Origin: Rotaria sordida
Lineage: Eukaryota
Assembly: GCA_905250005.1 (NCBI GenBank)
Contig: CAJNOH010001581.1
Location: forward strand, 1-35,797
Direction of reading: 5' to 3'
Length of the DNA: 35,797 bases
Positions 5,567 through 35,003 of the stretch are shown piece after piece. The translations under genes and the position numbers were made by a program. Numbering within the stretch: position 1 is the first letter of the stretch; each line of letters begins with the position of its first letter. Under the pieces are notes generated by a model, which was given only the letters and a program-made list of their open reading frames with translations, was not told the origin of the DNA and ran no database searches.

Positions 5567-5827
5567 TGGGTGTGTGGGTGTGGGTGTGGGTGTGAGGGTG
5601 TGGTTGTGGGTGCGGGTGTGGGTATGAGGGTGTGGGGGTGGGGGTGGGGGTGGGTGTGGATCTTCTCTTCACCCACACCCACTCCCACACCCGCATCCAC
5701 ACCCACACTGACACCCACACCCACACCCGCATCCACACCCACACTGACACCCACACCCACACCCACTTCCACACCCGCATCCACACCCACACTGACACCC
5801 ATACCCACACCCACACCCCACCCTCAT
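5567..5827. repeat. Large head-to-head telomere-like repeat block. A degenerate G-tract at 5567-5660, an 11-bp spacer, and a C-tract at 5671-5827 organised as 3-4 copies of a roughly 36-bp higher-order unit 'cacccacacccacacccgcatccacacccacactga'.
   Basis: Direct reading. The 36-bp periodicity is also visible as a 12-aa periodicity ([12 protein letters not shown]) in the artefactual ORF 5509..5814. Confidence 0.9.
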
Positions 5828-6739
5828 CTCGTTGTCAAAATATCCCTTATGGGGTAATTTGTCCAAATACTCTTAGTTCATATTTTATTTTATTGATGGC
5901 TTTTCCATTTGTTCTATGTGTAATCAAGGCCTCCTTTATCATTCATCATATCCAGTCTGTTTCATTCGCCATAGTTTTCACTCGAGAAAATTCGAATGTG
6001 TATCTATAATCAGTGGTATGCTTTGATAATTCAAAATTTAAGTCGTAATTTATAATCGCTTTCTAATGTTCAGACATTCTTTGACCGCGAAATCAGTCAA
6101 CTTCTCCAACATACACGAAATCAGAATGTCCATAACGAATTTTGTAAGCAAGTTTCTTCAATCTTCTAGCTTCATCATAGCCCTTCAGAAGTCACAGAAA
6201 GTTTTTCTTTCGAATGAAATAGCTCTTGGACTCCAGATGAAACTGCACATTTGATAGTAGCTTAGTGAAAAATTTTCTCAGTCGAGAAACAAAACTTACC
6301 GTTTAGTATCCATATTGCGAAATGTTAAAGAAAGTAGTCTATTTCGATACGGTTGGAATAGTTAGTTGGTTAAGAGGTTTAACACTAAAATTTCCATCTC
6401 AAGTGCCATGGCAGATGACATGAGAGGGGTAACCACTTGCTTTCAAAGTCTCTGTCAGTCTCTTTTTCTCTTCTTTAGCTAATTTGAATGAGTAGTTTAG
6501 CCTCTCAATGCAAACTGTGAATGTTTTCACCAAAACTACTTTGTACTTTCTGATTTAATTCGAGTCCTAAGTACGATAGTGGTCTATATATGCAGGTTTC
6601 CTATATAGTGTTGATATGTATTCGATGATCTTTCATTTTGTCAGCACGTCAAAGAAAAGGAGATGGGTGTTTGTCTGAAATTCAATTGTGAACTTTAATT
6701 CTGGATGCCAATGATTTATTCTATCCATTTATTCAAGTA

Positions 6740-10955: not shown

Positions 10956-11354
10956 CCCACACCCTTTATGAATAGTTATTGCACAATAAGCGTACTATTT
11001 AGATGAAATCCATTTTGTGTTTCTTTTTCACTTTCATTCTGCTTTTTTTTTCGAATGTCGCAGTAGAATAAAAACACGACAAGTGAAGTCAACAACAACG
11101 GCATTCTCCGATAGTTTGAAAAAAAATTTGGGTTTTTTTAAATTAAACATTTACAATGACACATGAACATTGGTATAGTATTTCTTTATTTTTTTTTATT
11201 TAATATCTACTGATTTTCTAGTGCTCAATTCTATTCTGATTGGCAAACAACGGTTCATTGTTCATTTGAAAATGTGTTTACTCCAACGATTGCTCATATA
11301 GTCGGTGCTAATCTTCAAAATATATTGGGTATTAAACACTTTAGACCAGATGCA

Positions 11355-14300
11355 ATGGCTAGAGATGCCTCATCACCATGTATATTTACATGCCAAAGAC
11401 GAGAAGCAAACGATATTCGTGATAAACTTATCCAGGTGACGACTGAATCGTATTCACATATTTGGTTTTCAATGCAAACAGAACCATTTCATTTTATTTA
11501 CAATAGGCGTTCAATGGTGGATGATGATTCAATGAAAGTCAAACAATATCCTGTCTTTTTCTATTTTGGTTCTATGTATACTTATAGTACTTTTCATATT
11601 CATAGTAAACCACACCCAGTTATTTACGATATTGACATAACCAAATGGAATCAGGCACCAGAAACAATTCGTATCATGTCTAAAGATAAAACGAGACAAA
11701 TCTTTATACCAGTGAAATGGATACAAAAAAAAGTGTTGGTCAATACAAATGGACGACCATGTGTGGTTTTAATGTTAAAATATTCTGTAAAAATGAAAAG
11801 AAAAGCAACAATCAATGGTAAATCAAAGTATGAAAGGTAAGGTAGATAGATCAATTGATAATACGACTGTTGTTTTCCAGACAGATGCTCTCGTGACACT
11901 TGTTCCTTGGCAACAGTTGTGGGTGTGGCTGTGGTAGACGTGGATGTGGGTGTCGGAGGTGCAGCGACTATAAATGTTCATCAGTTTTTTGCCCACTCAC
12001 ACACATATCCGTGCTGCAAAACTGAATGTCCGAGAAGTAGTTGTCACCGAGGAGCAAGTGTCACGGGAATATCTGTCATGGAATCGTTTTATATTATAGT
12101 TCCATGAAATCATACATCAGTAATCTTATATTTCATATCTCTTCTTTTAGAGTATGTCGAATAGATGAAGAAGGACTCGAAACAATCGTATCGAGAAGTT
12201 CTGATCTTCTTCTTTCGTTCAATGAAATTGACCATACATATGCTTTTCTGTCAGAGCTTACAAAAGAAACCGATAATTATCGCAATAAATTTAAAATCTA
12301 CTTTGTTTCACTTAAACAAGTTCAATGTGATAATAATAATAATAAACAACCTTTTAATTTGCCTCGATCAGCATCACATAAACAACATTATGCATTGAAA
12401 ATGCTTTATTCTATGGGTTATGTGTTTCAAGATAAATATTCAAAACAAATGCATGATCAATTTGTAGCATTTGATAAAGAATTATTCAATAATATGTGCT
12501 ATTATCTTAAAGAAAAACTCGAAGAAAATCATTGTTATATGTTAAATCGTATATTCGATGAATACAACACTTATCTAAAAGAGAAACGTAAAAATGAACA
12601 AGAATATTCTGTACAAAAACTTCCCTATTGTATTGGTTGTATTTCGTTGACACCATTACGAATTATCTATCATCGAATGGAATCATCAATTGAAAATCGA
12701 GCATTAAGAATGAGACAATTCGGTGGTGAAGATATGTTTTTATTGGTACATATTCGAGAAGAAGATAATCAAGCATTAAAAGATTTTGATTCATCAATTA
12801 AATGTCGACTTAAATCAAAAATGATGCAAGGAATTAAAGCTATGGATAGAATCTATCGTTTATTTGGTACATCAACTAGTCAATTAAAAGAAATGTCATT
12901 TTGGTTTGCAGCTATTGAAGATAAACCAATTGAAAAAGCTTGGGAAGAATTAGGAAATTTTTCGTCCATAAAAAATGTTGCCAATTATGTAGCACGGATT
13001 GGTCTTTATTTCTCAACATCTCATGCAACAGGAGTACGTGTATATTTTCTATTTTTGATAGAACAAACAAAAAAATCCAAACAATATTTTTTATTATCAT
13101 ATTTTAATAGATTTCATTTAAATATGAGAAAAACTTCTCACCCAACATGCAATATGTAGCAACAACTATTGATGATATTGAGACAAATGATAAAAAATAT
13201 TGTTTTACTGATGGCATCGGAAAAATGTCATGGGGTATTGCTGGTCTAGTTGCTCCAAAATTAAATATTAAATTGGAATCAAGAGATGATATACCGTCAG
13301 CTTATCAAGTTCGTATTGCAGGATGTAAAGGAATGCTCGTCATTGATCCTAAATCGAAAATGAATGATTATTATATAAAAGTTAGACCATCGATGGAAAA
13401 ATTTCAATCTGATAATTGGGAATTAGAAGTATGCAAATATAGTGGACCGTGTAAGGTTTCAAAAACTTAGTAGACAAATAAATATTATAACAATAGATTG
13501 TATTTGTTTTTATAGTTGAACTTAGATTCAATAATCAAGTGATCATGCTTTTATCGGATTTGCGTAATCCTGATGCAGTTTTTGAATCCTATCAAAATGC
13601 AAGTTTGACTAATTGTTTTGCACAAAATGAAAAGGAACAGCAACGAAAATTGAAGTTTGCATCAGCTAAGGAAGATTTATTAAAAAATAGAATTCCATTA
13701 CCGTTAAATGAAGCACGAAATATGTTTGGTGTTGCCGATGAAACTGGTACATTAGAATATAGTCAAGTATTTATTCAGTATAAAAATCTTGATCCAAACA
13801 TTGATAAAACATATATTGTTGTAACTGGTATGTTTGTTTTTTTTTAATTATTTTATAATTCTACAAAAAAATTACATCAATTATGTATGTCTATAGGTGA
13901 TGTATTAGTAGCGAAAATGCCGTGCTTACATCCTGGCGATTTTCGTCGGTTGACTGCTATCGATGTACCTCAATTGAGAAAATGTATACGTGATTGTATT
14001 GTATTTCCAACGAAAGGAAAACGACCTCATCCGAATGAAATGTCTGGATCTGATCTAGATGGAGATCAATATTGGGTGAGTCTTAATGAAACTAACTGAT
14101 GATTCACTATTTCAATTAAAATACTATAATAAGAAAGAAAAAACTATTTTATTTCGGATACTTTATAAAAGCAAAAATTATTATCAAGATTTTGACTAGC
14201 ATGATGTCTTAAACGAATGTTGTCTTATTTTTATGTTTGTACTTATAAGTTTTGTAGACAGATTAGTACAAGAAATAACAATGCTAGATATCTTCTTACT

Positions 14301-16483
14301 ACAGATCAACTCGAGTTTTCTTTTCAAACTTAAATTTGATCTTTAAAACAAAGCATACATGAAAGTACGGATGAATATAAGAAAATAATACATAATTTTT
14401 GTGATCTCATTTATTTACTATCTTTGATAAGATTGTGTAAAGCTTTTATTACAAAGAAAATTCAATTAGTACAATTGCAACCTTAGGTACTATGTTATTG
14501 AAAATGTTAAATGTCTTTGTATTAGGTATATTGGGGAAAACAATTGGAAATCAGAGAAATGGATGAACCATTATCATATGAATCTTTACCAAAGAAAGTA
14601 GTACCTAAAATAACATATGAAGATATAATCGATCATATCGTTGAGTCATTTGGAGCTGGAAGTCAAGGTATTATTTGTGATGTACATTTAGCAATTGCTG
14701 ATTCTCGTCCAAAACGTACCAGATCAGATGAATGCCGATATTTAGCTGAATTATTTGCACGTGCTGTTGATGCACCAAAAACAGGTGAAATTATTGAATT
14801 AGATAAAGTTTATAAATTAAGAGCAGAATTTTGTCGAGGATATCCAGAATTTATGAAAAAATACGATCAACCAATACGTCAATCGCAGAGTATTTTAAAT
14901 AAATTATTTTTAAATGCAAGAAGATACTTTTTTACGCATCATGAAACAGATCTTCAAATAGCATCATCAAAACCTATTTTACGATCCGATTCATCTACTC
15001 CTAAAGTCTGTGCACAACGAAAAACTGGAGCAAGCGTACAAGACGAAGAGTTTCAAGAATGGCTTATATCTCTTAACATTGATACATCAGACAATACAAT
15101 CAGTGAAGCTAAATCTATCTTAGCAAACACCAAAGGGAGAAAAAGCTCAATTAAAAGTCTTGATACTGCAAGCAGTATAGTTGAGGTGGACTCTTCGACA
15201 CCATCACTAGAATCATCAATCACAGGAAATAAAAAGAAAAGAAATATTCAATTGAAAAAAGAAGAAGCCGAAGACAATCAAACACTCTCAACAAAAGAAG
15301 AAAAACTTCCTGTCGAACCAAAACCATCTGGATCAGCTTCAACAAAAGATAAAACACCAAAACAAACTAAAGCAAAAGCAGAATCTATTAACACATCTGA
15401 TGAACCTTTTAAGTTAACCAATTCTGCTACGCCATCAGTTTCACTACAACTATCAGCAAGTGCTTCGTCGATTTCTCAGAATACTCTTAATCGAAATATT
15501 GTTTTCAATGGTATGACAGCAGTAACCAATCGGCTCAAATGGGTTCAAATAGGTAGTGATGTTTTTACAGTTGATCTGGATTCAAAAGGGAATAGTGAAA
15601 GCAATGCAATAGATAAAATAGTTAATCTTATGCTTGATCTAAGAAAAACAGCATCTTTTTCGACTGACACTAAATTAACACTTACAATATTATGGGGTGA
15701 ACTTAACATTAGAACTACACAAACAATGAATGATACAAAACCAAAGAATATAAAAGAACTTGTCCAAGTAATCAAAGATAATAATGATATTGAAATTTTA
15801 TTTAGAGAATCTGATATCAAAAGTATTGTAAAAGAACATGTAAGTATCGACACTTATTTAGTATACAATAACAAAAAACCTTTTAATCTTAGGAACCATC
15901 TGGCAAATCAGCAGCAGTCTATGTCCTTATTTGTAGATGTTTGGTTATTACACCAAACGATATAGCACTCATATTTGATGATAAAAAAAAATTAAAGAAA
16001 ATTTCATTTGCTTCTCGAGAGTGGATTTGTGCTGTTCGAGGCGGTGAAGCTATTACGGATAGTTACTATGAAATTCGATGTACAACCAAAGAAATCGATT
16101 CAGAACATGAGTCATTCTCTAACTATTTGAAAATGTTGTTCAAAGATCTGAACTCACTTGATATTTTAACTGGTAAAAGTCCACAAATTTCAATTGCTAG
16201 CGAACAATTTATACCAGGAGTACAAATTATTTCTTTACAACGATTGGTTCGTTGTGATTATGTCCTTTTAAGTCAACGAAAGTTATATCAAGGTCAATTT
16301 AGTACACTGACAAATCTCGAGTGGGCTTTTTATCATGTTACACGTATTTCTACAGAAAAGATAAATGGTAAAATTTCAACACGAGATGTAATTGAATTTC
16401 AGGCAACACCAATTCAACTGGCAAAAAAATGTGAACAAGACTTGAAAAATTTATGTGATTTGGCAAAGAGATTTTTTGACTAA
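11355..16483 (+). CDS. Cellular RNA-dependent RNA polymerase (RDR/RdRP family) with a long C-terminal extension. Proposed exons: 11355(first ATG; frame open from 11271)-11836, 12151-13033, 13111-13450, 13516-13827, 13897-14075, 14526-15839, 15893-16483.
   Basis: The catalytic exon encodes 'VLVAKMPCLHPGDFRRLTAIDVPQL...GSDLDGDQYW|VYWG', which is the eukaryotic RdRP DxDGD motif. Upstream exons carry 'RIYRLFGTSTSQLKEMSFWFAA...NVANYVARIGLYFSTS', 'FTDGIGKMSWGIAGL...PSAYQVRIAGCKGMLVIDP' and 'FNNQVIMLLSDL'. The downstream exon has 'HLAIADSRP...CRYLAELFARAVDAPKTGEII'. All seven proposed junctions keep the reading frame and use GT..AG with introns of 53-450 bp, for example 13034-13110, 13451-13515, 13828-13896 and 15840-15892. 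The track ORFs 12041..13159, 13147..13470, 13539..13847, 13887..14099, 14544..15965 and 15941..16483 are pieces of this gene. The last roughly 500 aa (Ser/Thr/Lys-rich low complexity, then a globular-looking terminal exon) have no similarity I recognise. The 5' end is uncertain; an upstream exon is possible. Confidence 0.85.
11917..11960. repeat. Degenerate telomere-like G-tract (ttgtgggtgtggctgtggtagacgtggatgtgggtgtcgg) lying inside RdRP intron 1
   Basis: Read directly from the sequence. Confidence 0.6.
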
Positions 16484-17237
16484 ATTTTAATAATATAGTT
16501 TATGAACAAAATAACAGAATAAATCAAGACAATGAGAGTAACATTTTCAATGTCTTTAAAAGTCATCTTCGAGAATCACGAAAAAGAGAAGATAGGTATT
16601 GTTCTAGAAAGTTCGTTTTATGAATAATCGACAACTTATTATGTTTATAGTACAGTTTTGAGACGCAAAACATTTATAGAAATGAAACAATTTCTTATGT
16701 AATTGATTGATATTTAACGCGTACTCAACCATCGTATTTCTATGATTAGGATTAACAGTTTGAATTTAAAATACTAAAATTTTTAATTAATATAGGATAT
16801 CTGTTCGGCAAACTTCATGCAAATGGTAGACAATGTTGATTTTAAACTAACTGAATTGAAGATAAGAAAAGAGAGAATGATTATTAAAACGAATTATGTT
16901 TGTTTACTTTTAGTTTTTGTATCAGAAAAATCATTTTGACTTTTTTTCATTTAAACATGAACGATCAGGTTCAAATGTTAGTGATAATATATATTAGTGT
17001 CACATTGACATTTTTATTATTTCAATTGTAGAATTCATACAAAAAAAAGTTACTGATCGCTGTATAAGATTATTCATAAATCATTTGATAATCCAAAGAA
17101 ATCTGTAATACAAAAAAATCAATCAGTATTCTTATAGCTTCGATTAATGTTAATGATGTGGAGATAAATCGAAATGATCTTTTCAAATCATTTCATTATG
17201 AGATTTTGAATCTATCGCTAGTGTCTTAATCTAAATC

Positions 17238-19137: not shown

Positions 19138-19876
19138 ACATAAAGAGAACACTCACAGCCTGCATCTCGACGCACTCTTTCAAACAAAAAAAAATTTAAA
19201 TATATTGACAGAGTCTGGACCGAGAGTTCCTTGTCAGAAGATGAAAAAATCATAAACCCAGAAAAAATAAGGTATCGAAGAAAAACCGATGCAGTTTTTG
19301 AAAGAACAGAAGAGGAGCTATCTTCCCATGCATTTATCTCAATTTCGAAATTTCTGACGAAAATTGACTTTTTTTTAGAAGACCTTTAAACATATCTTCA
19401 TAGTTGTTTAAGTGCTATGTTGAGATTTTTCTTCAACCATTCAGTTGGAAGAATACTATACTATTTGCGTCTCTGAAGCAAGAAGTTTTCCTGTGACAAT
19501 AATACATTTTGAATGATCAAAGGTTGCGAGCATAGGTGAGAGATGAGTACAATATTCCCATCAAGATCCACACTCTTATGATTTTCATGACATGGGACAC
19601 TTAGCGACGACATTAATGATGAAATGTATTAACATTGAGCTTCATGACTTGTGAAAATTTCCATGGTATACCGACGATTTCATCAGCTTGTGCAATAACT
19701 CAACGTGCAGAACTGTAAAGAAAAATATTAATAACATTTGCCTACTTCTTGTTTTTTCTCTTTTCCTTTGCATGGAGTAACGCGTAACCATATTAGTCAT
19801 CACACGATTATTTTGAAAATAGGTCATAGAATGAATACGTTCGTAGATTGGTTCATAAATCATTGATTATTTTCAG

Positions 19877-22800
19877 ATGAAACAAGCTACTACCTCTACT
19901 TCATTATTATCACCATTCAATGGCAAAACGATTGTACTCGAACTTGGCCATGAAATAGGTTTCAAAGCTAAACAAGAATTGATCAACTATTTACGAGAAC
20001 AGCAAGCACATATTTCATATATTTTGACAGCTAGTGTATGTTCTCCTTTTATTCCATTAAACATGTGATTAAAGTTGACTTATTTAGACTGATTATGTTT
20101 TGGCTATGAATAATGTAGATAGCTACAAGATACGTCGTGCCAAACAGCTTGGCTTACCAATAGTCAATGTTGAATATGTATACAGATGTCGTTGTTTGCC
20201 ACCTGGTCAAACATCAATTGATATTAGTAAATTTATTATCAAGTCAGCTGAAGATCAAGAAAATTTTACAAAAACCGGCACTATTTCCATGGAAGGTATT
20301 AGTAGTTCTTTTAAAAATCATGTCAGACATCCTTGTTCATTAGAATGTCGAGTAAATGTGACTAAAATCAATAAATTCGATTTGACTAAAATCAAATTAT
20401 GGAATTCGGACGATGTCGATTTGCCTGGTTTCGATGAGTTGACACATTGTGAGATTGGCAAATGGGCCATTTTCAAAGTAGATTTGTATTAATTTCTAAC
20501 TATTGTTCTCTTATATTTCTACTGTTCATAATAGGAAACCAACGATAATTCAAATGTATTTTTTGTTCTTGAACTTCAAGTTATTCCAGAACAGTACTAC
20601 GATCGAACAACGAGTGATTATCGACTACGATTTCGATATGAAAAACAGACTATTATTGGTGAAGAACCACAACACGATAAAAAAATTTCGATACAATATG
20701 CATTCAGTGATGATCCAAACGAACAACAACAATTGTTTGCATCGTACTATTATCGAGTGGCTAAAATGTCACGTATAACACGAATTCGTGAGATGTTACC
20801 TAATAAATTAGGATCAAAACTATTGTTACGTGTAAGTAAATAACATTGACAAAGAGAAACTATTTTCCAAAAGAAGATCAATTATTTTTAGTCTTTATTT
20901 ACTCATCGTATCGATACACAGATACTTGATGAGAACGTATGTCAATTGATTGAATCGATTTGGTTAGAATCGATTGGTGATCTGAATAAAATGTTGAGCA
21001 TATCACCCGAATCGATCACTCTCAAAACGGTATACAAATTCATTTTGTTACATTCATATTAGTTTGTGCTCTAAACAACTAAATAGATCATTGAAGCCGA
21101 AGCTGCACTGCTTGAACTCAAATCAACCAACAATTCTGCTGCTGCACTTCGTTTCTATTCACTTATACCACATCGACAAGAATACAATATCGATCTCATC
21201 AAGAATCGTCGAGCGTTAACCGAAAAAATAGACTTATGTCAAGTATGTCTATTTCTTTTTATTTGTTTTGTTTGATCTTTTACCTGTTCAGATGCTTCGA
21301 GATATGCTTACTGTCAACGAACTGACCAATTGGAATGTTAAAGCACCAATCGAAGCTAAATATCGAGCATTGAAATGTTATATTGAAACAGTGACTAGTT
21401 CAACACCCGAATTTAAGAATATTGCTAACATCATTCAATCGTCGACAGATAGGTGAGAAAATTTAATATTCAATTTCATGATAATAGCTTATTTGTTTTT
21501 GTTCATTAGCGATGAACAAATTGTCATTCACAATGTATTCAGCGTGGCTAAACAGACAGATGCACTCAATTTTTGTACAACATTATCTCATCAACGACAA
21601 CTATTTCATGGATCGAAATATGTCAATTTTCTTGGGATTCTTTCACGGTAAAATATTCATTTAATCCTCTAGACAATATTATGTGTACATTTAGTGGTTT
21701 GGTCATGCCTAAAATGGTAGTAGAAGACTTAGGTGTTGTACGTACTGATATTGGTTGTCTCGGTTATGGGATTTACTTTTCTGATTCTGCTTCGACTTCT
21801 TTAAAGTATACAACAACAAGCATAGTACGACCAGGTCGTCGTTTGTTATGCATTTGTCAAGTAGCACTTGGCGAAACAGCTAACTATTATTCATTTTCAC
21901 CGACTCTCACCAAACCTCCGGATGGTTTTCATAGTACGCATGGAGTTAAACGAACAGAAGATAATCATTCAATGTTTACTGTAAGTAGTTAGTGTTATTG
22001 TGACCTATTAAAGTATATTTTCAAAAATTTTGGTGAATTTCGTAGAACCAGCGAACCAAATTTTTTCGTCAATACCAGTGACTAAGCATTCATTTATGTC
22101 AGAGTTCATTGGTAGAGCTTGGAAAATCCCTTGACTATTGAATTCATAATTAATAGTGCAATCATAAATTTGATATTTATCGAAATAGGATAATGAATAT
22201 GCGATCTATCAACTCGATCAACAACGTTTACTCTACATTGTGGAAGTTTCATGGGCACCGAAAGATAATCTCAATATCGAATTAGAACGATTACCAATTA
22301 TTCATCATCAACAGCATGCATTACAATTGAGTGAACATGGTAATGATGATTCTTTTTATTAGATTAGAATTCAATTATCAGATTATCTGTTACATTCTAG
22401 TCGAAGTTCCCATGACAATCGATAATGAAATCATTGAAATAGCTGAACAAGACTATGGTTTAATATGTCCATCATCAGGAAAACTTGTACCACTTAAATC
22501 ATTTCATATTCGTGCTCAAATTGTTGATGTTACAGTTGAAGTAATTATATCTATGTTTCCATTGAAGTCAAATACTAATTCATCATATTTCTATTTAATG
22601 AAAAAGGTTGTTCTCTATCAAGTCTATCACAATATGAGTTCGAAACCGATTGAAGCTAAATATGTATTTCCTCTTGATGAAAATTCAACTGTATGTGGTT
22701 TTGAAGCACATATCAACAATAGAATTATCAAAGGTGTCGTTAAAGAAAAAGAACAAGCCAAACGAGAGTATCGAGAAGCAATTCAAAAGGGTCATGGCGC

Positions 22801-25800
22801 CTATTTAATGCATCAAGAAGAAGCTCAAGTGTTCAGCGTTGCTGTTGGTAATTTGCCAGCGAACAATGAAGTTATCATCAAAATAACCTATGTTGCCGAA
22901 TTAGAAATCGAAAATGGCGATATTATTTTTCGTCTTCCAGCCAAAATGACTTCATGGCAATCGAAAAAAGCGATCGAAAACAAAGATCAAACAATTCTAC
23001 GATCTATTGGTATTGTCGATGAAAAAGTTGAATTCAGTTTCAAAGCATCGATTCGAATGCCATACAAAATAGTGAAATTATTTTCGCCAACACATCGTCT
23101 TCGTCGAAAGTTAACTGATTGTATAGCCATGATTGAACTTGTCGATAATATCTTACTTGATCAAGATTTTATTCTTTCGATCGCACTCAACAGTCCTAAT
23201 TTACCTCGAACATCAAATGAAACATTGTCATTGGATGACAACAGTGGAACAACTGACACATCGAACAATCATAATTCTCAAGCATGTATGCTTACCTTTT
23301 ATCCACGATTCGAAACATTGACGAATTCGAACGAACAAATTGAAATTATTTTCATTATTGATGTATCAAATTCAATGGATGGTAGTCATGTACAACAAGC
23401 TAAACAGTTAACTCATTTGTTTCTTACTAATTTGAAAGTTGCCGATGAGAATACATATTTTAATGTAATCACTTTTGGATCAGGTAATAATGTTATATTT
23501 AACAGCGTTATTTTTACTATTCAAATTGGAACTATTTAGATAATGATGAATGTTTTCCTATATCAACACCAATCACAAAAGAAAATCTTGATAAAGCCAA
23601 ACATTTTGTTTTGGTTAGTAGTTTTTCTTCAATCTTCATTTTGTATATAAAAGTATTCTAGCATTCTCTTGTCCATCGTGGTAATACGGATCTATTTGCT
23701 GTTCTTCATCGTTATTCATTATTACCATCGTCATTATCATCGAAATTCGGTCGTCAATTCATTCTTCTATCCGATGGACATATTCACGATCTGAATTCGA
23801 TTCTTGCTCTACTCAAATATCGACCGACTATGCGTCGTGATCGTTTATTTACATGTTCAGTTGGTAATATTGCAAACAAACATGGTTTGAAACAGTTAGC
23901 TAATGGAGCAAATGGAGGTGGTCTAACAACGATATTCGATTCGAACTATCGATCAAAATGGAAAACAAAAGTATTGAACATTCTTGAACAGATCCGACAA
24001 CCTTGTGTTACAAGTATATCTATCGATTGGCATGGTCATTTGGATGAAGAACAAAAATTCAATATGCAAGCACCGAAAATGATTCGATCTTTGTTCAATG
24101 GAATGCGACTTACTGTTTATCGATTCATAGAAAATTGTCACAAGGCAACATTGACGGCTACTATTGATGAGCAAGAATTTGTTACGACTGTATTTAGTAG
24201 TACGATGACAACGACCAGAGGGCGTATTCTACACTGTCTAACTACTCGAGCGATCATCGATGATTATGACAACGGACTATTGGATGTAGATGAGAGCGAA
24301 AACGAATTGATCAAAGCTCAATATCGACGAGATCTCATCGATCTCAGCATCAAATATTCTGTTGTCAGTGCATACACTAGTTTTGTTGCCATCGAAGAAC
24401 GTGATATCAAAACGGATATAAAAACTCTTCAACCAGGTTAGTAAAAAAAGTTGAGATTTTATTGACTAAAGTCATGGGTTGATTAGTAACAGAATAGCAC
24501 AAGAGTAAAAATTTATCTACATCACTATTGAGACATGTACTTTCTGTTATAGGTGTTCGTCTGCCTGAAGTTATGCTGAAGCATGATGTGGACTTACTAC
24601 CATACATGGGATGGGATGGTGATATATCAAACTTGACTTTAATCAAACATAAATTGTTCGATGCGCGTATTTCACTCGAATGTGCATCGATTCAGGGCAA
24701 AAAAGAAACAGTTGCTGATGTTGAAAAACTTTGTCAAAAAATTTCCTATCGAGCAGGTGGTGATGCAAAATTTGGTATGATGATGACTATCATACGCACA
24801 TATCGTTATTCATTGAATGAATACGATAATGCAGATGAACTCGAAGACAAAATGCGAAAGGGTATGTTAATTGATCTAGGATCAAAATTTAAATATATCG
24901 AATTTGAAAAATGAATAGATATAATGACCGAAATGATTAGTGCAACGACAGAAGAACGGCAAGCATTACAACAAAAATGTCTGGCGAACAATTTGATAAT
25001 CACAAATAACGAATTGTAAGTGAAAGAAAGGAAAGAAACATTCAAAAAAAAATGTTGGTGTATTCGTTCTCTTACAGTGAATCAATGGCTAAATACGATG
25101 GTAAGAAGGGAATTTGATCATTCTACTTTGGAAACCTCAATCGAGAGAAAGAAAGTGATTCTATAATTTAGACCAAAATGAAAAAATAAGAATATGCTAT
25201 TCATCATCAAAGCAATGGACAAAAACGAATCTCATGATTATTTTGGTTTCTGTATATCATAGCATCTGAGCAATTCGATTAAGACAGGATAGAGTAAAAA
25301 GTACTTTTTCTATTCAACTTTTAATCGTAGATTTATGTGTCCTCTTTCTATAACGTAGTATAATTTCAACAGAAGGGATCCAAGAAAAATCTTAATAATT
25401 GCATAACATGTCCACACTACGTATATTGATCTTCGACAAACTTACGAGGAAAGGTCACGAACTGATAAATCGCTTTTTAAATTTTAGTCATGCCAATTTG
25501 TAGAGCTTGTTGAGTTATTAACTAATATGATAAACATTCAGACCAACAAATGGGGCTGTAGAGTAAATTTCTAATAATCTAAGTTTCTATTAACCTATCC
25601 ATACCCCTATAGAGCTCCTAAGCACTCCTATAGGACTACTATACGGTATGGACAGATTAATTGAAATTTAGATTATCAGAAATTTACTCTACAGCTGCAT
25701 TGTTGGTTCGAATGACTATTATATCAGTTAATAACTCAACAGGCTCTACAAATTGGCATGACTAAAATTTAAAAAGCGATTTATCAGTTCGTGGCCTTCC

Positions 25801-26334
25801 CTCATCAGTACGAGGGTGAAAATGAATAACCATTGCACGTACTCAATCATCATATTGCATTTTTGCAACTCTAACGGTAGTAGAAAATCATTTTAGAAAG
25901 CTTTGGTGAAGTGACATTAAACGGAATTACTTGGATGTTTTGAAAGAATTATATAGTCTAACTTTAAAGTCTAACCTATACTAAGTAGAACATTTAAGAT
26001 TATCAAAATGAATACCATGTGAAAAAAGTGAAGATCGTTTCCAAAACAATATTTATATTTCATTTTCATAGATTTGGTTCGTATGCTTGGAGCTGATTTC
26101 AAGGATTTAACAACAGTTGAACAAATGGAAAAGATAAGAAAACTATGCAGCATGGTGCGTCAATTCAATGCTACATATAAGAATAATGCCGAAAATTGAA
26201 TATTTCTTTTTCAGTTAGATGAAGTACCAGATTTTATTGGTAAATTATTTATGCCAGCAACAGCAAACCTATCACCAATACCTGAAAAGCAACTTCCAAC
26301 TACAGATAACATGAAGATAGGGGTGCGTGAGTGA
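19877..26334 (+). CDS. PARP4: PARP4/vault-PARP-like poly(ADP-ribose) polymerase with BRCT, a possible WGR-like segment, PARP alpha-helical regulatory, PARP catalytic, VIT and vWA domains plus a C-terminal region. Proposed exons: 19877-20035, 20088-20477, 20535-20831, 20892-21029, 21087-21242, 21292-21452, 21501-21647, 21695-21980, 22189-22339, 22401-22540, 22607-23483, 23540-23613, 23662-24436, 24552-24860, 24919-25015, 25078-25100 (micro-exon), 26072-26154, 26215-26334.
   Basis: BRCT: 'FNGKTIVLELGHEIGFKAKQELINYLREQQAHISYILTAS|TDYV..AKQLGLPIVNVEYVYRC'. Regulatory: 'LDENVCQLIESIWLESIGDLNKMLSISPESITLKT', 'ALRFYSLIPHRQEYNIDLIKNRRALTEKIDLCQ'. Catalytic: 'RQLFHGSKYVNFLGILSR|GLVMPKMVVEDLGVVRTDIGCLGYGIYFSD...LLCICQVALGE' and 'DNEYAIYQLDQQRLLYIVEV', which keeps the PARP H-Y-E triad. 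VIT: 'KPIEAKYVFPLDENSTVCGFEAHINNRIIKGVVKEKEQAKREYREAIQKGHGAYLMHQEEAQVFSVAVGNLPANNEVIIKITYVAELEI'. vWA: 'IEIIFIIDVSNSMDGS...ITFGSD..FPISTP', 'RGNTDLFAVL', 'ILLSDGHIHD', 'SAYTSFVAIEER'. Every proposed junction is frame-consistent with GT..AG and introns of 48-208 bp, except a 971-bp intron (25101-26071) that carries a palindromic element. The track ORF 22331..23539 hides a 66-bp in-frame intron (22541-22606) whose removal restores the VIT consensus. The 3' end is uncertain: the stop at 26332-34 coincides with a possible GTGAGT donor. Confidence 0.8.
25447..25815. mobile_element. Near-perfect palindrome (foldback or MITE-like) of about 370 bp inside the long intron of the PARP4-like gene
   Basis: 25450-25620 is the reverse complement of 25630-25812; for example 'cacgaactgataaatcgctttttaaattttagtcatgccaatttgtagagc' pairs with 'gctctacaaattggcatgactaaaatttaaaaagcgatttatcagttcgtg'. 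The centre lies near 25625. No ORF is present. Confidence 0.8.
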
Positions 26335-27591: not shown

Positions 27592-28323
<732 letters not shown>

Positions 28324-29171
28324 ACTGTTATTTTTATTAAAGAATATTCCTTCGACTGAAGGGAGGGTCATATGAAAAAAAAATGATTTTGTGTGTCTGT
28401 GTGTTTGTGGCAAGGTCAAAAGAACATCCGCTTAAAGATCAATGCTCAGGTTTCTTCGATATCTAGCTTTCGTCCAATCAGTTTCTTTTGGGTTGCAATT
28501 TCAGCTTATCAAGAGTTTTCGATATTGGCCTTTCGGTCAATCAGATCCTTTTAGCTTGGAGTTCCAGTAAATCAGGGACAAGAATTTATTTAAATCAGCG
28601 GATTTATCTATTGATAGCATATAATACATTTTCACTGTATCAAAAGAAAGCTATAGTTCAGCAGAGTTAGTCCTCGTCCTCAACTACAAACTCTGTCCAT
28701 GGAAATCTCATGATGAGGGTGTCTTCATAGTAGTTGATATATTTTCTAATCCATCAGTGCAAACTAACACATTAGATCGAAAATTTCGAGCGCTTTCAGA
28801 ATATGTTATTATGTTTTTACAAATATCGTGACGATATATTATTTTTTCCAGAGGTATATATGGATTATTCTTATATCGAATTGTTTTTTGACATATGAGA
28901 TTTGTAGATTGACATGATGTAGACATTTAATTTAGTACTGAAATATTTGTTGTGATGTTTTATAGTTGATCGCAGTTGTAGTCAGCGAAGAAGAGTAATT
29001 AATTTGGTGTAACTGTTTGCTTTCTTTTATCAAAAATAAATAGCTTATTTGTCACTTATCTAGACAACAGTATTTTGTAGCTACTGTTGGGGATTATTTT
29101 TAGTGAGGACACCATCAGAATTGCTATCGAAAACAAGTGGTTTGAAACAAGTGTCATTAGAGGAATATGAA

Positions 29172-31327
29172 ATGGCTGATTCATACGATGACAAGGGCAA
29201 AGACGCCGGCGATTCATCTTCGCTTCGATTTACAGACACCCGTGGGCCCTTGTTGACGAATCACGATTTGCCCACTTCGAAGATAATTCTAGCTAATGAA
29301 AAGGAACGCTTGACAGAATCGAATTTTCTTAAGTTACTTTCGAAATCAGAAGAACAACAAATGTCAATGTCTACTGTTGATAAGAAACCGAAGAAAAAGA
29401 AGATGAAAGAAAGGGGTACAGATAAGATCGTTATTAGCATCAAGTTCGTTTCATTGTGTCCGTTATAGAATCAATGCCTGCACTACCATCGGAGCCACCA
29501 CTAGAACCGCCTCAACAACAACCAAGCCCTGGTGCCAAGATACCAATGTATGTATTTTCCGGACTCTGTGTCATGTAGTCATTGATGTTTTCTGTTAGGA
29601 TGTCAGATGGTAAACCAACGTCAGGCTTGACATTACCATGCAACCAGCCATCAGTACAAATATCTGAAGCTGCAGCATTATCGTCTTGTATCGATAATCT
29701 CAAGACTACAAGTAAGATCTGAATTTCGGCCTATTAATATTTATGGTAATTCCTAACTTCAACTAGATTTGAGCTATAATACTTGGACTTCTTGCGCAAA
29801 TAATAGGTTGTTCTTATACGATCAAGAGTTCCGAATGTTTTACGCCTATTTCCGAGGAGGAAGCAGCAATTTATGAGTTTGATGAATTTGATTAAATTTG
29901 AGTGAGTATAATAAGCTAAATTCAAGTCACTGAGACTTACTGAAGTTAAACATGCCACGTTCTGATTTCATGTCCATTTCAGGTCTCGAATTGGCAGCGC
30001 CATTCGATTCGTCTGACCATGTAGTTGATGCTTCTGTATCGGCTCCTCTTTCTTTACCGGAACCACTGTCACCAGACATATCATATCGAACAATATCACT
30101 GTCAAAAGAAGCGGCAAAATCTGCATCCCGCAGTGGTAGCAACTGTATGCAATCTCCAATAGCATCAAAACCGAAGTCAAGTGTTAGTAAGTTAGAATCA
30201 TACAAATTTCTCGATTATTTTGATTAACGATCTGTGAACATAGAAACGCCTTCACGAGTTTTGTCAAAGAGTGGTAAACATGGTAGCATGAGAGTACTTA
30301 TCAGTGAACCACAAAGTTCAGACGATGATACAATAGATGAAATACTATCAATGGATTCGACATATGAAACTGTACAATGTGACGAGATGTCTGACAAAAT
30401 ACATGTGTCAATGGAAAAACGAGATCAACACCGGAAAGTACGTACATTAACATGGAATTTTTCTTATGAAGTTTGATCAACTTGTTAGGAGCAACGGTAT
30501 GACGATGATATGAGAAAGTTTACAAGTGAAAGTGCACAATCAAAATCCACGATTGATAAAAAGACAAGACGATTAGAAATGTGAGTTTTGACAAAGGTGT
30601 GCGACGATTAATTACTAATCGTCATTCTCGATCGATGACTTTGTTTTTAATGAGAATTAAATGAAAATTTAGATCTCGATCAAGAATGACACGTAGTTCA
30701 ACATCCGAAACATCTGTCTGTGATCTACTTCTTCTGGATGTGTGTCCACTTGGTCTAGGCATCGAAGATATTCACGGTAACATGCACACGCTGATTCGTC
30801 GTAATACAATTATTCCAGCGCGAACTGAACTTTATCCAATATTCACAAATGCTTATGCCTATCAAACAACAGCTACCATTCGCATATTTGAAGGTGAACA
30901 TAATCTCACAAAATACAATGTACGTAGTGTTCTAACTTTATAAATTTTATTTTCTAGCCTTCTCTATTATAGATATTATTGGGTGAATTTAGTCTTTCTG
31001 ATCTAGCAAGCAACTTCGCTGCTCAGACACTTGAAATAGCTATTCGTATGGATATCGATGCTAATGGGATACTTCATGTCGATGCTGAAGAAGCACGCTC
31101 GGGCGCGAAAGCTTCATTTACTGTTGGATCCAATCAGCAAAGTTCGACAATTACTTAGATGTTTCATATCATTATTAAATACCGTTCATATTTATCTAGG
31201 GTTGAGCAAAGATGATATTGAACGACATATTACATATGTAGAAAGTGATACAAACTTTGCAGCTAAATCTGGTCAGTATGAAAAAAGTATAAATGATATT
31301 AAATTATTGTTATTCTGTAGTTTATGA
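29172..31327 (+). CDS. Chimeric protein with about 330 aa of disordered Ser/Asp/Lys-rich N-terminus followed by an Hsp70-type substrate-binding domain (beta-sandwich plus the start of the lid) and no nucleotide-binding ATPase domain. Proposed exons 29172-29415, 29983-30186, 30244-30437, 30489-30580, 30673-30919, 30973-31141, 31200-31327.
   Basis: Hsp70 SBD hallmarks: '[135 protein letters not shown]'. Compare canonical DLLLLDVAPLSLGIET...NTTIP...IQVYEGER...[32 protein letters not shown]...GRLSKEDIERMV. No NBD motifs exist anywhere upstream; the upstream exons encode 'MADSYDDKGKDAGDSSSL...KKPKKKKMKER' and 'LELAAPFDSSDHVVDASVSAPLSLPEPLSPDISY...'. All six junctions are phase-consistent. The 31141/31200 junction uses a weak GTTCGA donor but recreates the conserved Arg of 'GRLSK'. 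The 3' end at the 31325-27 stop is uncertain. Confidence 0.65.
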
Positions 31328-31413
31328 TCGCAAACCCAATGATTCATTGTACTTAGTTCGTATTATGTCATCTTTTCATAGTTCGATTTTTCACTTTTTC
31401 TGTCTTTTCTCAG

Positions 31414-32203
31414 CTCGATGGTCAAATCACATCTGTAACACGTAACTTTTCTGGTGAACTTATTACCTCATTCGGTAATTTGTCCTTTGTTGTTGTTTGA
31501 GAGATATACTGCAATTGTATACGAATTCAGGTCAAACGACTGGTGCTCCACTTCTCATTAAACTGAAAAATGTTCAATCTACAAGAACAATGATTGAAGA
31601 ACTCATCAAACTTCAATCCGAGGTAATATCATTTTCAAAGTTTATTACCGATGTATTTTTTTGCATTTGATTCGAATATAGGACGGTTCATTTACGTTGA
31701 ATAAAGATTTAGCTGATATACTTCATATCAATGTTGATATTTTCAATGGCCTAGAACAATATTTACGTGAACAAGGTTTTAACTCGCTTGGTAAGATCGT
31801 ATGATTTATTACGGAGATATGAACTTTAATTTTCTTAGCTTTGAACATACAAGACGAAATTCTTCGTTTAATTGGTACAGGTGTCATTCTTCTTTGGCTC
31901 GTTCTTCAAATGCAAGATTTACAACAACATACGTGTCAATTTTTATTTAACATTGAACAAATCAAAGTGAATTGTTTTTTTCCGATCTTTTCAATTTACA
32001 TTTTACTCTCTCTATGTTGCTAAGGTTTATCTCTGCAACCATTTACCTGCTAACATGAATGAACAAATTAGCAAAGCGATCGAATTCTATCAACAAATAA
32101 GTCAACGTAATGGTATCTATTGTAAACAATTAGAATTGAGCGATTCATCATGGGATATGTTTATTCAACGTATAGTTATTGGCATCGATCATGTCAATAA
32201 GTA
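31414..32203 (+). other. Cluster of exon-like segments with consistent splice phases: 31414-31474, 31531-31622, 31682-31790, 31839-31874/31966, plus a terminal ORF 32025-32203. They may be 3' exons of the Hsp70-like gene or a separate gene fragment.
   Basis: Each segment is bounded by good acceptors ('ttttctcag', 'cgaattcag', 'gaatatag', 'ttttcttag') and donors ('gtaatt', 'gtaata', 'gtaaga', 'gtacag'). The spliced peptide is 'LDGQITSVTRNFSGELITSF|GQTTGAPLLIKLKNVQSTRTMIEELIKLQSE|DGSFTLNKDLADILHINVDIFNGLEQYLREQGFNSL|ALNIQDEILRLI'. The 'LQSEDGSFTL' motif is reminiscent of the C-terminal region of VIT/vWA-family proteins. Linkage to the upstream gene could not be resolved by phase. Confidence 0.4.
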
Positions 32204-32958
32204 AAAAGTGATTCTGAGTGACATCTCTTTTTTTTCTAATAATTTTGCTATTACACTTTTATTATTCTAATCCTGAAGCACTACAATATTGTTTATTCTT
32301 CAACACAAAAAAAATAAAAGAATTAAAGGGTGCGGATCGATGTACGCGTGATAGTAAACATAAGACGTACATTCTCATATTTTTCATGAGTCATGTGTTG
32401 GAAAAAAGCAGTTGCAAGATTTCTCAGTGCAAATCTTGGCGCACAAGTAATTGTTCCTGGCTTACGACTAAATTGATAAATACTTCAATCGTGTTGGAAA
32501 AATCTGAATCAAAGTTTTGTTGAGAGTGTGAGTGAGAACTCAATATAACATCCTCATTCCCATCTATCCACATCCATACATCCAAAATTTGCCATGATCT
32601 AAACGAAGTAGAATGCATGGAAAAACTTGCCATTTCTATCGTTCAACAGACAAATACATTAAAAATTTGTGGTTATTGAGTTGTAAGCTAACAGTAACAT
32701 TCTTTCAGCTAGTAAGTCTCATTTTATTTATTATAGACGTCAAAATATAAGGTAGGTGGTTGTTTTTTGAATAAGTGTCGATAGGAACAAGCTAGAGACC
32801 TGTGATTTTCACCATTCAACAGAGAACAGAGATGAGCATTAGGGATGCACCAGTGCCAGTAACTGAGTGCCCAGTCGAACTGGGACCCAGTCACGACTGG
32901 GCACTTAGTCATTTAACGTTTATTCCGCTAATCGATCAGTACTTCCCTCTTTTCTAAC

Positions 32959-33941: not shown

Positions 33942-35003
33942 ATGAGTACTTCTTTTTGTTTATTTAAATCAGTGTCAACACAACTCTATCAGAAATCGAT
34001 CAATTGGGACAATCGTGCCCAAGGTCAATATACAGATGCTATGGCCAAAGCTGATTTTGGTTCGGTCAGCGGATGGAAAAACGATCGTGCATCGATCTCA
34101 GACGGGAAATTACGTATCACTTTACGAAAAAATGCATTGGGTGGGGAAAGCGGTATCATATCCAACACAAGAATCCCAGATGGTTCTGCATATGAGTTGG
34201 ATTTTGACGTTCGGTTTCATAGTCAATTCGACTGGAGTCGTGGTGGAAAAGTTGGTTTCGGTTTTGGCATCGGAAATCGAAATACAGGATGCAATCCCCC
34301 AAAAGATGGAGCGGGTGGAACTCTACGTTTAATGTGGTACAATGATAATAAACGAGTCTATTTCATTCCATATGTTTATTATTATGGTATGCCAGGGCAG
34401 TGTGGAGACAAGTTTGGCAAATCGTATCCATCAACTGGTATGAGTTATTATTCTTAAGGAAAGTTATATTCAGAATCACCGCTAGTTTGAAGTAGTCACT
34501 GTTCGAGATTACTTCTCCATTCGACATGCTTTTGAGCACGGATTATCCCCATAGAGTATCGAAACACAACCGAAAAGTCTTTAAAATTTCTTACCAGATC
34601 ATTTGATGATTCAGTAAAAAATGTCATCAATGATTGCGAAAGGGTGAATATAAAAACGTACTCTTTCTTAACTTTAGGTAGTATTGAAAAAGGCAAGTTG
34701 TACAGAGTTCATATGTATGTCAAATCAAACACTGGTAATAACGCCAATGGACACGTCCAAATAAAAATCAACGGAGAAGTGCTAATTGATCAGAGCATCC
34801 GGTGGACAACCAATGACAGTAAACGACTTATTAACAACTTGTCTTTTCACACGTGAGTTTTATTTCAGAATACTTTTGTTATAAGTACTTTATTTGACTT
34901 TTTTCAAAATAGATTTCGTGGAGGAAGCGAAGATCATTGGAAATCCAACGTTGATAGCATGATTTACTATGATAATTTGTCTGTCAGACAAATTAGTAAA
35001 TGA
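33942..35003 (+). CDS. Small secreted-looking beta-jelly-roll (concanavalin-like) protein, possibly polysaccharide-lyase-like. Exons 33942(or 33973)-34437, 34677-34852, 34913-35003. An alternative 5' mini-exon 33782-33803 ('MKLFTTT') would splice to 33973.
   Basis: Track ORF 33942..34457 ('...WDNRAQGQYTDAMAKADFGSVSGWKNDRASISDGKLRITLRKN...GFGFGIGNRNTGCNPPKDGAGGTLRLMWYNDNKRVYF...') continues through GT..AG introns 34438-34676 and 34853-34912. The downstream exons read 'G SIEKGKLYRVHMYVKSNTGNNANGHVQIKINGEVLIDQSIRWTTNDSKRLINNLSFHT|FRGGSEDHWKSNVDSMIYYDNLSVRQISK*'. Phases match: 1 then 1, and 2 then 2. The composition is Gly/Asn/Trp-rich. The family assignment is a guess. Confidence 0.6.

Follow-up and report, generated by a model that had tools for sequence, protein, structure and literature searches.

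A PARP4 (vault PARP) paralogue of the bdelloid rotifer Rotaria sordida and its probable extension into Hsp70-type and vault-docking domains

Which protein is encoded by the PARP-like gene on contig CAJNOH010001581.1 of the bdelloid rotifer Rotaria sordida, and where does this gene end? The stretch of DNA analysed, hereafter the window, comprises 35,797 nt of the forward strand of this contig, and all positions given below count along it. An earlier reading of the letters alone (the sequence-only reading) had placed a PARP4-like gene at 19877-26334 and had credited it with the PARP4 domain order, an active catalytic triad and an extra WGR-like segment. Judged by its domains and its closest relatives, the locus is a PARP4 (vault PARP) paralogue of bdelloid rotifers, and its WGR-like segment is an ordinary part of this family. 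In our preferred reading the gene is a long unit which continues to position 32204 and there codes for the domain that docks PARP4 to vaults; we give this reading as a whole a probability of roughly 0.7.

Per kb, the GC content of the AT-rich window varies between about 29 and 42%, and introns in the region are short and of GT-AG type. The rebuilt gene leads from the ATG at 19877 to the TGA at 26332-26334 on the forward strand and has 18 exons and 17 introns, all of which are GT-AG. The spliced coding sequence is open over 4374 nt and codes for 1457 aa, which confirms the start, the stop and the open frame as originally read. The estimate of about 18 tiny introns was close, as 14 of the 17 introns measure 47-66 nt and the remaining three measure 208, 116, and 971 nt. 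The end of exon 18 can be set in three ways: at 26334 with read-through to the TGA, at 26326 with a GTGAGT donor, or at 26322 with a GTGCGT donor. The features of this part of the locus are the following.

19877-26322, + strand: exons 1-18 of the PARP4-like gene, its N-terminal and central part (spliced open reading frame, GT-AG introns)
19877-20035, 20088-20477, 20535-20831, 20892-21029, 21087-21242, 21292-21452, + strand: exons 1-6
21510-21647, 21695-21980, 22189-22339, 22401-22540, 22607-23483, 23540-23613, + strand: exons 7-12
23662-24436, 24553-24861, 24919-25015, 25078-25100, 26072-26154, 26215-26322, + strand: exons 13-18
22541-22606, + strand: in-frame intron of 66 nt without a stop codon inside the VIT domain, GTAATT..AAAAAG
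20296-20343, + strand: candidate second in-frame intron of 48 nt, stop-free, in the linker between BRCT and WGR, GTATTA..TTCATTAG
25440-25809, strand not assigned: palindromic element of 370 bp inside intron 16, resembling a miniature inverted-repeat transposable element (MITE), with 110-nt arms that are 90% complementary and inner arms of 57 nt

The in-frame intron at 22541-22606 had been predicted from the letters, and this prediction holds. Once the intron is removed, the Pfam VIT profile is covered end to end (1-111/111), and the 22 residues that it would otherwise contribute are absent from the partial R. sordida model P0022 and from all non-rotifer homologues. As was also foreseen, annotation based on open reading frames goes wrong at this point: the GenBank model P0026 does retain the intron. 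Removal of the candidate intron at 20296-20343 gives TGTISMEECRVNVTK and a length equal to that of P0001, P0003, P0006, and P0024; the GenBank models P0022 and P0002 keep it. Intron 16 is unusually long (971 nt), and much of its length is due to the MITE-like palindrome, which is found at the same site in the R. sordida contig L004 (92%) and partly in the R. magnacalcarata contig L001.

Directly 5′ of the start codon, at 19860-19876, stands the acceptor-like sequence TTATTTTCAG. Its position before the ATG at 19877 is compatible with an intron in the 5′ untranslated region or with a spliced-leader acceptor; trans-splicing occurs in bdelloids. The GenBank model P0005 reads through this region and thereby acquires a spurious N-terminal extension.

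The assignment to the family rests in the first place on comparison with proteins of known structure. Among all PDB sequences the best phmmer match is human PARP4, both as the full-length chain (E 6.6e-60) and as the crystallised fragment comprising the helical regulatory domain (HD) and the ADP-ribosyltransferase (ART) domain (8sx1, E 8e-60), whereas PARP2, PARP1, and PARP3 are about 40 orders of magnitude weaker in E. The protein and P0022 are 99% identical; for models from four further Rotaria species the figure is 79-90%, and for those from Adineta 67-73%. With proteins named PARP4 from oyster, coral, and many vertebrates as well as with an unnamed sponge homologue it shares 32-38% identity over 57-89% of the length. 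The gene has already been deposited, as 'unnamed protein product' in GenBank and as 'Poly [ADP-ribose] polymerase' in UniRef, and each species has many paralogous PARP4-like clusters.

The Pfam domains of the spliced product follow each other in the order BRCT, PARP_reg, PARP catalytic, VIT, and vWA, as had been proposed for this gene; two of them stay below the Pfam cutoffs and are backed by other comparisons. VIT and vWA were found and the catalytic residues are unsubstituted.

19910-20189, + strand: BRCT domain, residues 12-87, across intron 1 (Pfam 20.3 bits, cutoff 21.3)
20379-20795, + strand: WGR domain of degenerate type, residues about 151-270, in exon 3 and the end of exon 2
20895-21342, + strand: helical regulatory domain (HD, PARP_reg), residues about 284-397 (phmmer to 8sx1, E 8e-60)
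21409-22263, + strand: ART domain, residues 420-600 (Pfam PARP over residues 420-577, E 2.8e-25)
22457-23916, + strand: ITIH-like region with VIT (residues 645-767) and vWA (residues 918-1074) (Pfam)

The BRCT region gave no significant match to PDB sequences, neither as a single sequence nor as a rotifer-only profile. We accept this weak domain because a profile of the rotifer N-termini matches one built from PARP4 BRCT domains outside the rotifers (hhalign 98.5%, E 3e-15); in addition, the paralogues P0024 and P0033 exceed the Pfam cutoff. Similarly, PARP_reg reaches only 22.8 bits over residues 341-393 (cutoff 26.8) and is accepted because residues 284-599 align in phmmer with the crystallised HD and ART domains of human PARP4. 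The ITIH-like region is well above threshold, with E 3.5e-38 for VIT (residues 657-767), 8e-17 for VIT_2, 5.6e-12 for VWA_3, and 7e-11 for VWA (both residues 918-1074), and the translation contains the residues of the metal ion-dependent adhesion site of vWA (DxSxS..T..D) in DVSNS, GNTD, and LSDG.

The sequence-only reading had regarded the WGR-like segment as a possible addition, on the ground that human PARP4 lacks such a domain. This is not the case: a WGR domain, albeit a degenerate one, lies between BRCT and HD of human PARP4 (Suskiewicz et al., PMC10450202; Frigon and Pascal, PMC10711553), with F-L-L in place of W-G-R (PMC10711553). In a multiple alignment the rotifer segment is in register with the same region of every metazoan PARP4 examined, namely those of sponge, coral, oyster, fish, shark, turtle, and caecilian. 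The corresponding rotifer strand reads RFRYEKQ and is devoid of the W-G-R signature, which is the same situation as in human PARP4, and the WGR family (PF05406) is not among the Pfam matches of the rotifer protein at E<=1. The segment has the WGR fold; structure prediction was made on the 99%-identical segment of P0022 and, for the MINT domain described below, on the 97%-identical segment of P0078. By this alignment the segment is an ordinary degenerate PARP4 WGR domain and not an addition. A PARP4 homologue with a family-typical WGR is thus ordinary for a bdelloid and is already present among the deposited predicted proteins.

The catalytic triad is retained as predicted. The motifs LFHGS, GIYFSD, and DNEYAIY share columns with LLHGS, GIYFSD, and DDEFVVY of human PARP4 in the phmmer alignment, which gives the following correspondence.

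21607-21609, + strand: H467, aligned with human H438
21774-21776, + strand: Y507, aligned with human Y477
22195-22197, + strand: E578, aligned with human E547
21795-21797, + strand: Thr514, aligned with human T484 (the position of PARP1 K903)
22189-22191, + strand: Asp576, aligned with human D545

We consider this residue mapping sound because the numbering derived from the alignment reproduces N471 and T484 of PMC10711553. The H-Y-E triad does not make PARP4 a polymerase, as its acceptor site is disabled: it carries T484 instead of K903 of PARP1, and the segment with E544 and D545 would clash with the acceptor phosphates (Frigon and Pascal, PMC10711553). In the rotifer protein the equivalents of T484 and D545 are conserved, and E544 and K516 of human PARP4 are not, being replaced by Thr and Phe. 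Since Thr514 and Asp576 occupy the T484 and D545 positions, we suggest that the protein is an active mono-ADP-ribosyltransferase, which would bind NAD+ and attach single ADP-ribose units, not polymers. The transferase activity deduced earlier from the triad is therefore still predicted, without implying a polymerase.

The boundary of the gene at 26334 probably has to be revised. Several homologues are much longer and have matches to Hsp70 (PF00012) and PARP4_MVP-ID (PF26156), and tblastn places these parts at 29.1-32.2 kb of the window, on the same strand as the PARP4-like exons. With P0026, P0006, and P0024 as guides, 15 exons could be built between 29104 and 32204; every junction is GT-AG, and the introns measure 48-92 nt except for one of 271 nt. 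The MINT/MVP-ID domain is encoded at 31.5-32.2 kb and can be joined in frame, so the shorter model lacked the most diagnostic domain, as it is MINT that makes PARP4 a vault protein.

27592-27688, 27750-27827, 28045-28186, 28239-28318, + strand: four calmodulin-like exons corresponding to calmodulin residues 2-133 (phmmer E 1.5e-78)
29104-29415, 29469-29547, 29599-29711, 29983-30186, 30244-30437, 30489-30580, + strand: low-complexity linker of six exons, probably disordered (in-frame GT-AG chain)
30673-30919, 30973-31141, 31200-31271, + strand: substrate-binding β-domain (SBD) of Hsp70 type, including the motif DLLLLDV of the interdomain linker (Pfam HSP70 positions 378-516, E 4e-28)
31321-31355, 31414-31474, + strand: short exons before MINT
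31531-31622, 31682-31790, 31839-31966, 32025-32204, + strand: MINT/MVP-ID (vault-docking) domain and stop codon TAA at 32202-32204

The linker, whose introns measure 51-57 nt except for the one of 271 nt, matches the linker regions of P0001, P0004, P0006, and P0026; the stop codon at 30582, with which some GenBank models end, is bypassed by a GTGAGT donor. The Hsp70 part matches the SBD structures of BiP and Hsc70 (E 3e-26) and covers only the interdomain linker and SBDβ; the models nowhere contain a nucleotide-binding domain. An Hsp70-type SBD is found at the same position in the Adineta vaga proteins P0024 and P0033 and in the oyster PARP4 P0047. For the MINT region the only phmmer match is human PARP4 1574-1703 (E 1.5e-6). 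The installed Pfam-A gave no MVP-ID match in this region at E<=1; precomputed PF26156 matches exist for the 97%-identical P0078.

Exon 18 can be joined to the 15-exon chain in three ways, each of which is open and has GT-AG at every junction. Model A (2150 aa) uses the GTGAGT donor at 26327 and goes directly to 29104 without the calmodulin-like exons. Model B (2281 aa) uses the GTGCGT donor at 26323, includes the four calmodulin-like exons and then continues at 29104, and model C (2177 aa) is like model B with the 29104 exon skipped. We rank model A below model B: it is open in the window, but the GTGAGT donor is destroyed in R. magnacalcarata.

Do these exons belong to one gene? All structured parts are under purifying selection: the ratio of nonsynonymous to synonymous substitution rates (dN/dS) is 0.12-0.33 in the BRCT-WGR, HD-ART, VIT-vWA, SBD, and MINT regions in comparison with three related loci, with 0.16-0.28 for exons 1-18 and 0.14-0.27 for the SBD. 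The A. vaga gene I4U23_015385 (P0024, 1868 aa) contains ART, VIT, vWA, SBD, and MINT within 7.35 kb in one gene model, and PARP, VIT, vWA, Hsp70-SBD, and MINT are likewise united in one model in A. vaga P0033 and in the oyster RefSeq PARP4 X4. Within the exon chain 29104-32204 the introns are so short that there is no room for a promoter before the SBD. As for P0078, the GenBank model that stands alone, its first Met is an internal one located 12 nt past an acceptor site. Based on frame, splice sites, orthologous gene models, and selection, it appears probable that a single long transcription unit runs through 32204 and codes for a protein of about 2150-2280 aa.

Alternatively, the TGA at 26332-26334 could be the end of the gene, whose product would then be an enzyme of 1457 aa that has no vault-docking domain; the exons for the calmodulin-like module and those for SBD and MINT would make up one or two separate genes downstream. 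Several observations weigh for this arrangement and against one long unit. When the exon-18 donor is not used, an in-frame stop follows right after this exon, at 26332, so that at least a short isoform ending there is possible. The introns flanking the calmodulin-like exons measure 1269 and 785 nt compared to the norm of 47-66 nt, and a gap as long as 1.27 kb before another coding exon is unusual in this genome. The GenBank annotation of R. sordida splits an allelic contig into three models, the partial P0022, a separate EF-hand gene (394 aa), and the SBD-MINT gene P0078 (509 aa), and the assemblies of Rotaria and Adineta contain many models of 500-600 aa in which SBD and MINT stand alone. In R. 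magnacalcarata (L001, about 16430-16560) exon 18 has a 1-nt indel and has lost the GTGAGT donor, with the in-frame TGA kept. Finally, ATTAAA signals are present 157-310 nt past 26334.

Nevertheless, we regard two or three separate genes as unlikely. Both the initiator exon and the final exon are missing from the calmodulin-like block, and the SBD-MINT block is preceded by an unbroken in-frame exon chain. MINT is a hallmark of PARP4, and the A. vaga and oyster models have MINT and ART in one gene. The gene predictions of these draft assemblies are inconsistent, as P0001, P0026, and P0078 fuse or skip exons. ATTAAA is common in DNA of 32% GC, and the sole canonical AATAAA comes after 32204; taken together, the poly(A) signals do not discriminate between the candidate 3′ ends at 26334 and 32204. 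Exon 18 itself is absent from the compact related contig L003 and has a dN/dS of 0.82 versus A. vaga; it may be a weakly constrained cassette exon.

In addition to the single long unit, the calmodulin-like exons have to be explained. They are identical to vertebrate calmodulin in 124 of 132 residues (phmmer) and match Pfam EF-hand families. The module begins right after the position of the initiator Met and stops inside EF-hand 4, and it is in frame with exon 17, with exon 18 (by the GTGCGT donor at 26323) and with the next exon at 29104. The terminal calmodulin exon ('VNYEEF') was looked for and not found in the window, in L001, or in L003, nor was there evidence for an ATG-only first exon. 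In L003 (model P0021) an intron of 65 nt links the PARP4 exon ending in ...CTM straight to ADQLTEEQ, which excludes a nested calmodulin gene with its own first exon in that contig and, by analogy, argues against such a gene in the window. Calmodulin-like exons are fused to PARP4 in P0001-4, P0021, and P0025-26, that is in five Rotaria taxa and one Adineta-labelled contig, and the A. vaga gene FUN_024910 is annotated as PARP+VIT+EF-hand+VWA. The dN/dS of the module (0.23-0.45) resembles that of the host gene; genuine calmodulin has values far below this range. EF-hands 1-3 are largely intact. As a point against a working module, EF-hand 4 is truncated after 'DIDG' and EF-hand 3 has an N to H replacement at a Ca2+-ligand position. 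On balance we consider the odds slightly better than even that the calmodulin-like exons are included in the PARP4 protein.

These features could also be read as signs of decay, namely of a paralogue whose C-terminal half has been disrupted by a calmodulin gene fragment and by transposons, with the N-terminal reading frame still intact and a product that is non-functional or being lost. The long element-bearing introns with the MITE-like palindrome in intron 16, the frameshift of exon 18 in R. magnacalcarata together with its dN/dS versus A. vaga, and the truncated EF-hand 4 with His substitutions would agree with this, as would the linker exon 'DCPWQHVL..DDWNNVDL' of P0021 and P0024, which was not found intact in the window. 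On the contrary, the long model is open in each of its 37 exons and has canonical splice sites throughout, dN/dS is low both in the main domains and in the calmodulin-like module, and the same architecture is retained in several Rotaria species and in the Adineta-labelled contig. Furthermore, an EF-hand-bearing PARP4-like gene of A. vaga is expressed and radiation-induced. We therefore regard decay of the paralogue as very improbable.

A more specific proposal for the origin of the module is that internal exons of a calmodulin gene (residues 2-133) were exonised into the disordered linker of a PARP4 paralogue specific to bdelloids, upstream of an Hsp70-type SBD shared with bivalve PARP4s. The mono-ADP-ribosyltransferase so formed would be tethered to vaults and would respond to Ca2+ in its activity or its capture of clients. 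We put this forward tentatively, as somewhat less probable than an even chance. In a wider view, invertebrate PARP4s seem to gather in their linkers pieces of cytosolic proteins that are abundant (Hsp70 SBD, calmodulin, the actin N-terminus, ubiquitin, and the tail motif of the ribosomal P-stalk), and such pieces could serve as bait or as cargo-recruiting modules. The linkers of P0049 (sponge), P0047 (oyster), P0068, and P0006 were examined, and an N-terminal piece of actin (PF00022 positions 2-66) and ubiquitin are among the fragments that they contain. In the sponge linker the tail motif of the ribosomal P-stalk, SEEEEDENMGFSLFD, occurs twice, and Rotaria P0006 has the similar DDDDDDNMFDIFGD.

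How might the long protein work? Its C-terminal third would consist of a disordered linker, an Hsp70-type SBDβ, and MINT. We propose that MINT tethers the enzyme to rotifer vaults, because genes coding for major vault protein (MVP) exist in bdelloids. The vWA, VIT, and Hsp70-type peptide-binding domains may recruit clients or cargo, and the ART domain might then mono-ADP-ribosylate itself, MVP, or the cargo. The calmodulin-like exons in the linker, if spliced in, would add a Ca2+-sensing module.

The vault-docking step is the part of this scheme on which the residues can be compared with a known interface. S1614, K1618, Q1682, and R1689 are named as the contacts of human MINT with MVP (PMC12280208). 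Of these four only S1614 is conserved in the rotifer protein, in which K1618 is replaced by N, Q1682 by R, and R1689 by Q; this weakens the case for identical docking and leaves the apparent homology of the MINT domain unaffected. Docking to vaults is thus plausible from the homology of the domain and not from conservation of the interface. The changed contacts could also mean that the protein, although a true PARP4 homologue, is not a vault protein in rotifers: the diverged MINT-like domain would bind another partner and the enzyme would act in the response to DNA damage and desiccation outside vaults. In line with this, PARP4-like genes of A. vaga are classed and co-induced with genes of base-excision repair (BER) and non-homologous end joining after irradiation, and some reports ascribe non-vault roles to human PARP4 as well. 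However, A. vaga has multiple MVP copies which are co-induced by the same stresses, and the interface residues can co-evolve with MVP. We consider a role outside vaults rather unlikely and retain the vault-tethered enzyme as the preferred reading.

Data on stress response are available for A. vaga, in which irradiation or rehydration leads to over-expression of several MVP genes (Moris et al. 2024, PMC10809525). According to the supplementary tables of this study, PARP4-like genes with Hsp70 or EF-hand Pfam matches are induced as well (log2 fold changes of 4.5, 1.8, and 2.1); they are listed there only as 'PARP' of the BER pathway and their architecture is not discussed (PMC10809525). The presence of vault components in this lineage, which had been thought informative in itself, is therefore weaker as a finding, as MVP and PARP4-like genes were already listed for A. 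vaga (PMC10809525) and near-identical Rotaria proteins are in GenBank and UniProt.

An exhaustive search of 1.84 billion representatives with an SBD-MINT profile returned mostly Hsp70s, and the matches to both domains add Didymodactylos (a bdelloid) and Pinctada to Rotaria and Adineta; a word-indexed search with the SBD-MINT region matched only rotifer fragments and Hsp70s. Sponge and coral PARP4 are devoid of the SBD. So far, judging from these searches, the SBD-MINT arrangement appears only in bdelloids and bivalves (Magallana, Pinctada). In our literature search no paper was found that discusses the architecture of bdelloid PARP4, and the combination of ART, VIT-vWA, a calmodulin-like module, an Hsp70 SBD, and MINT does not seem to have been described previously.

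Comparison with the corrected gene model shows that this locus is broken up or wrongly fused by draft annotations, in no fewer than four different ways. Owing to such mis-annotation, analyses of 'PARP' copy number and expression in bdelloids probably mix PARP4 with DNA-repair PARPs. The corrected architecture also belongs to animals in which irradiation and rehydration jointly induce MVP and PARP4-like genes. A vault PARP with a recognisable peptide-binding domain and a Ca2+ sensor would bear on the long-standing question of vault function and on what vaults load and when.

Some further observations concern the locus and its surroundings. In the HD-ART part (21292-21980) the nonsynonymous divergence (dN) is 0.24 from the R. 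magnacalcarata orthologue and 0.08 from an A. vaga paralogue (L001 and L002), and the flanks show the opposite; this difference suggests mosaicism or gene conversion among PARP4 paralogues. The upstream neighbour at 11274-16483 on the + strand is a gene for a eukaryotic-type RNA-dependent RNA polymerase, of which the pieces 12041-13159 (E 4e-21) and 14544-15965 (E 1.5e-16) match Pfam RdRP. Further upstream, on the same strand, lie a reading frame of 223 aa with an internal duplication and no Pfam match (3940-4611) and a TG/CA microsatellite tract that reads as an HTHT... frame (5632-6009). Downstream, at 33942-34457 (+ strand), a reading frame of 171 aa has a weak match to polysaccharide lyase 14 (21.5 bits, below the cutoff); the GenBank model P0078 wrongly joins the MINT exons of PARP4 to this frame.

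When compared to known systems, the rotifer protein differs clearly from the WGR-HD-ART enzymes PARP1, PARP2, and PARP3: it has neither the W-G-R triad nor a Pfam WGR match and it possesses VIT, vWA, and MINT. In addition, Thr replaces K903 of PARP1, the Lys needed for chain elongation. With human PARP4 (Q9UKK3; PDB 8sx1, 8swy, 9bw6) it shares the order BRCT, degenerate WGR, HD, ART with H-Y-E, VIT, vWA, long linker, and C-terminal MINT/MVP-ID as well as the equivalents of T484 and D545, which limit the human enzyme to mono-ADP-ribosylation. In the human protein MINT is the part that attaches the enzyme, within the vault, to repeats 3-5 of MVP. Both proteins are about 35% identical; the human one contains neither an Hsp70 SBDβ nor a calmodulin-like module, and the rotifer one has K1618, Q1682, and R1689 changed and BRCT and HD domains under the Pfam cutoffs.

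The two modules that are foreign to human PARP4 are both incomplete relative to the proteins they resemble. Calmodulin is autonomous, with 149 aa and four functional EF-hands, whereas the module in the window lacks the initiator Met exon and the last 15 residues and is embedded in the PARP4 linker. Hsp70 chaperones consist of a nucleotide-binding domain with actin fold, SBDβ, and a helical lid; the window has only the linker and SBDβ. The A. vaga genes I4U23_015385 (P0024), I4U23_003265 (P0033), and FUN_024910 are paralogues or orthologues with 68-73% identity and the same domain set, of which FUN_024910 is annotated with an EF-hand pair, whereas P0024 and P0033 are compact and have no calmodulin module. 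Outside the rotifers the nearest architecture is that of PARP4 from bivalves (Magallana gigas 'PARP4 isoform X4', P0047/P0048; Pinctada imbricata P0131), where identity amounts to 35% over the first 1250 residues and to 32% over the SBD region. It has no calmodulin module, and the oyster linker also carries an N-terminal actin fragment. Nevertheless, PARP, VIT, vWA, linker, Hsp70-SBD, and MINT are present there in one RefSeq model, and as in the window the SBD is located directly before MINT.

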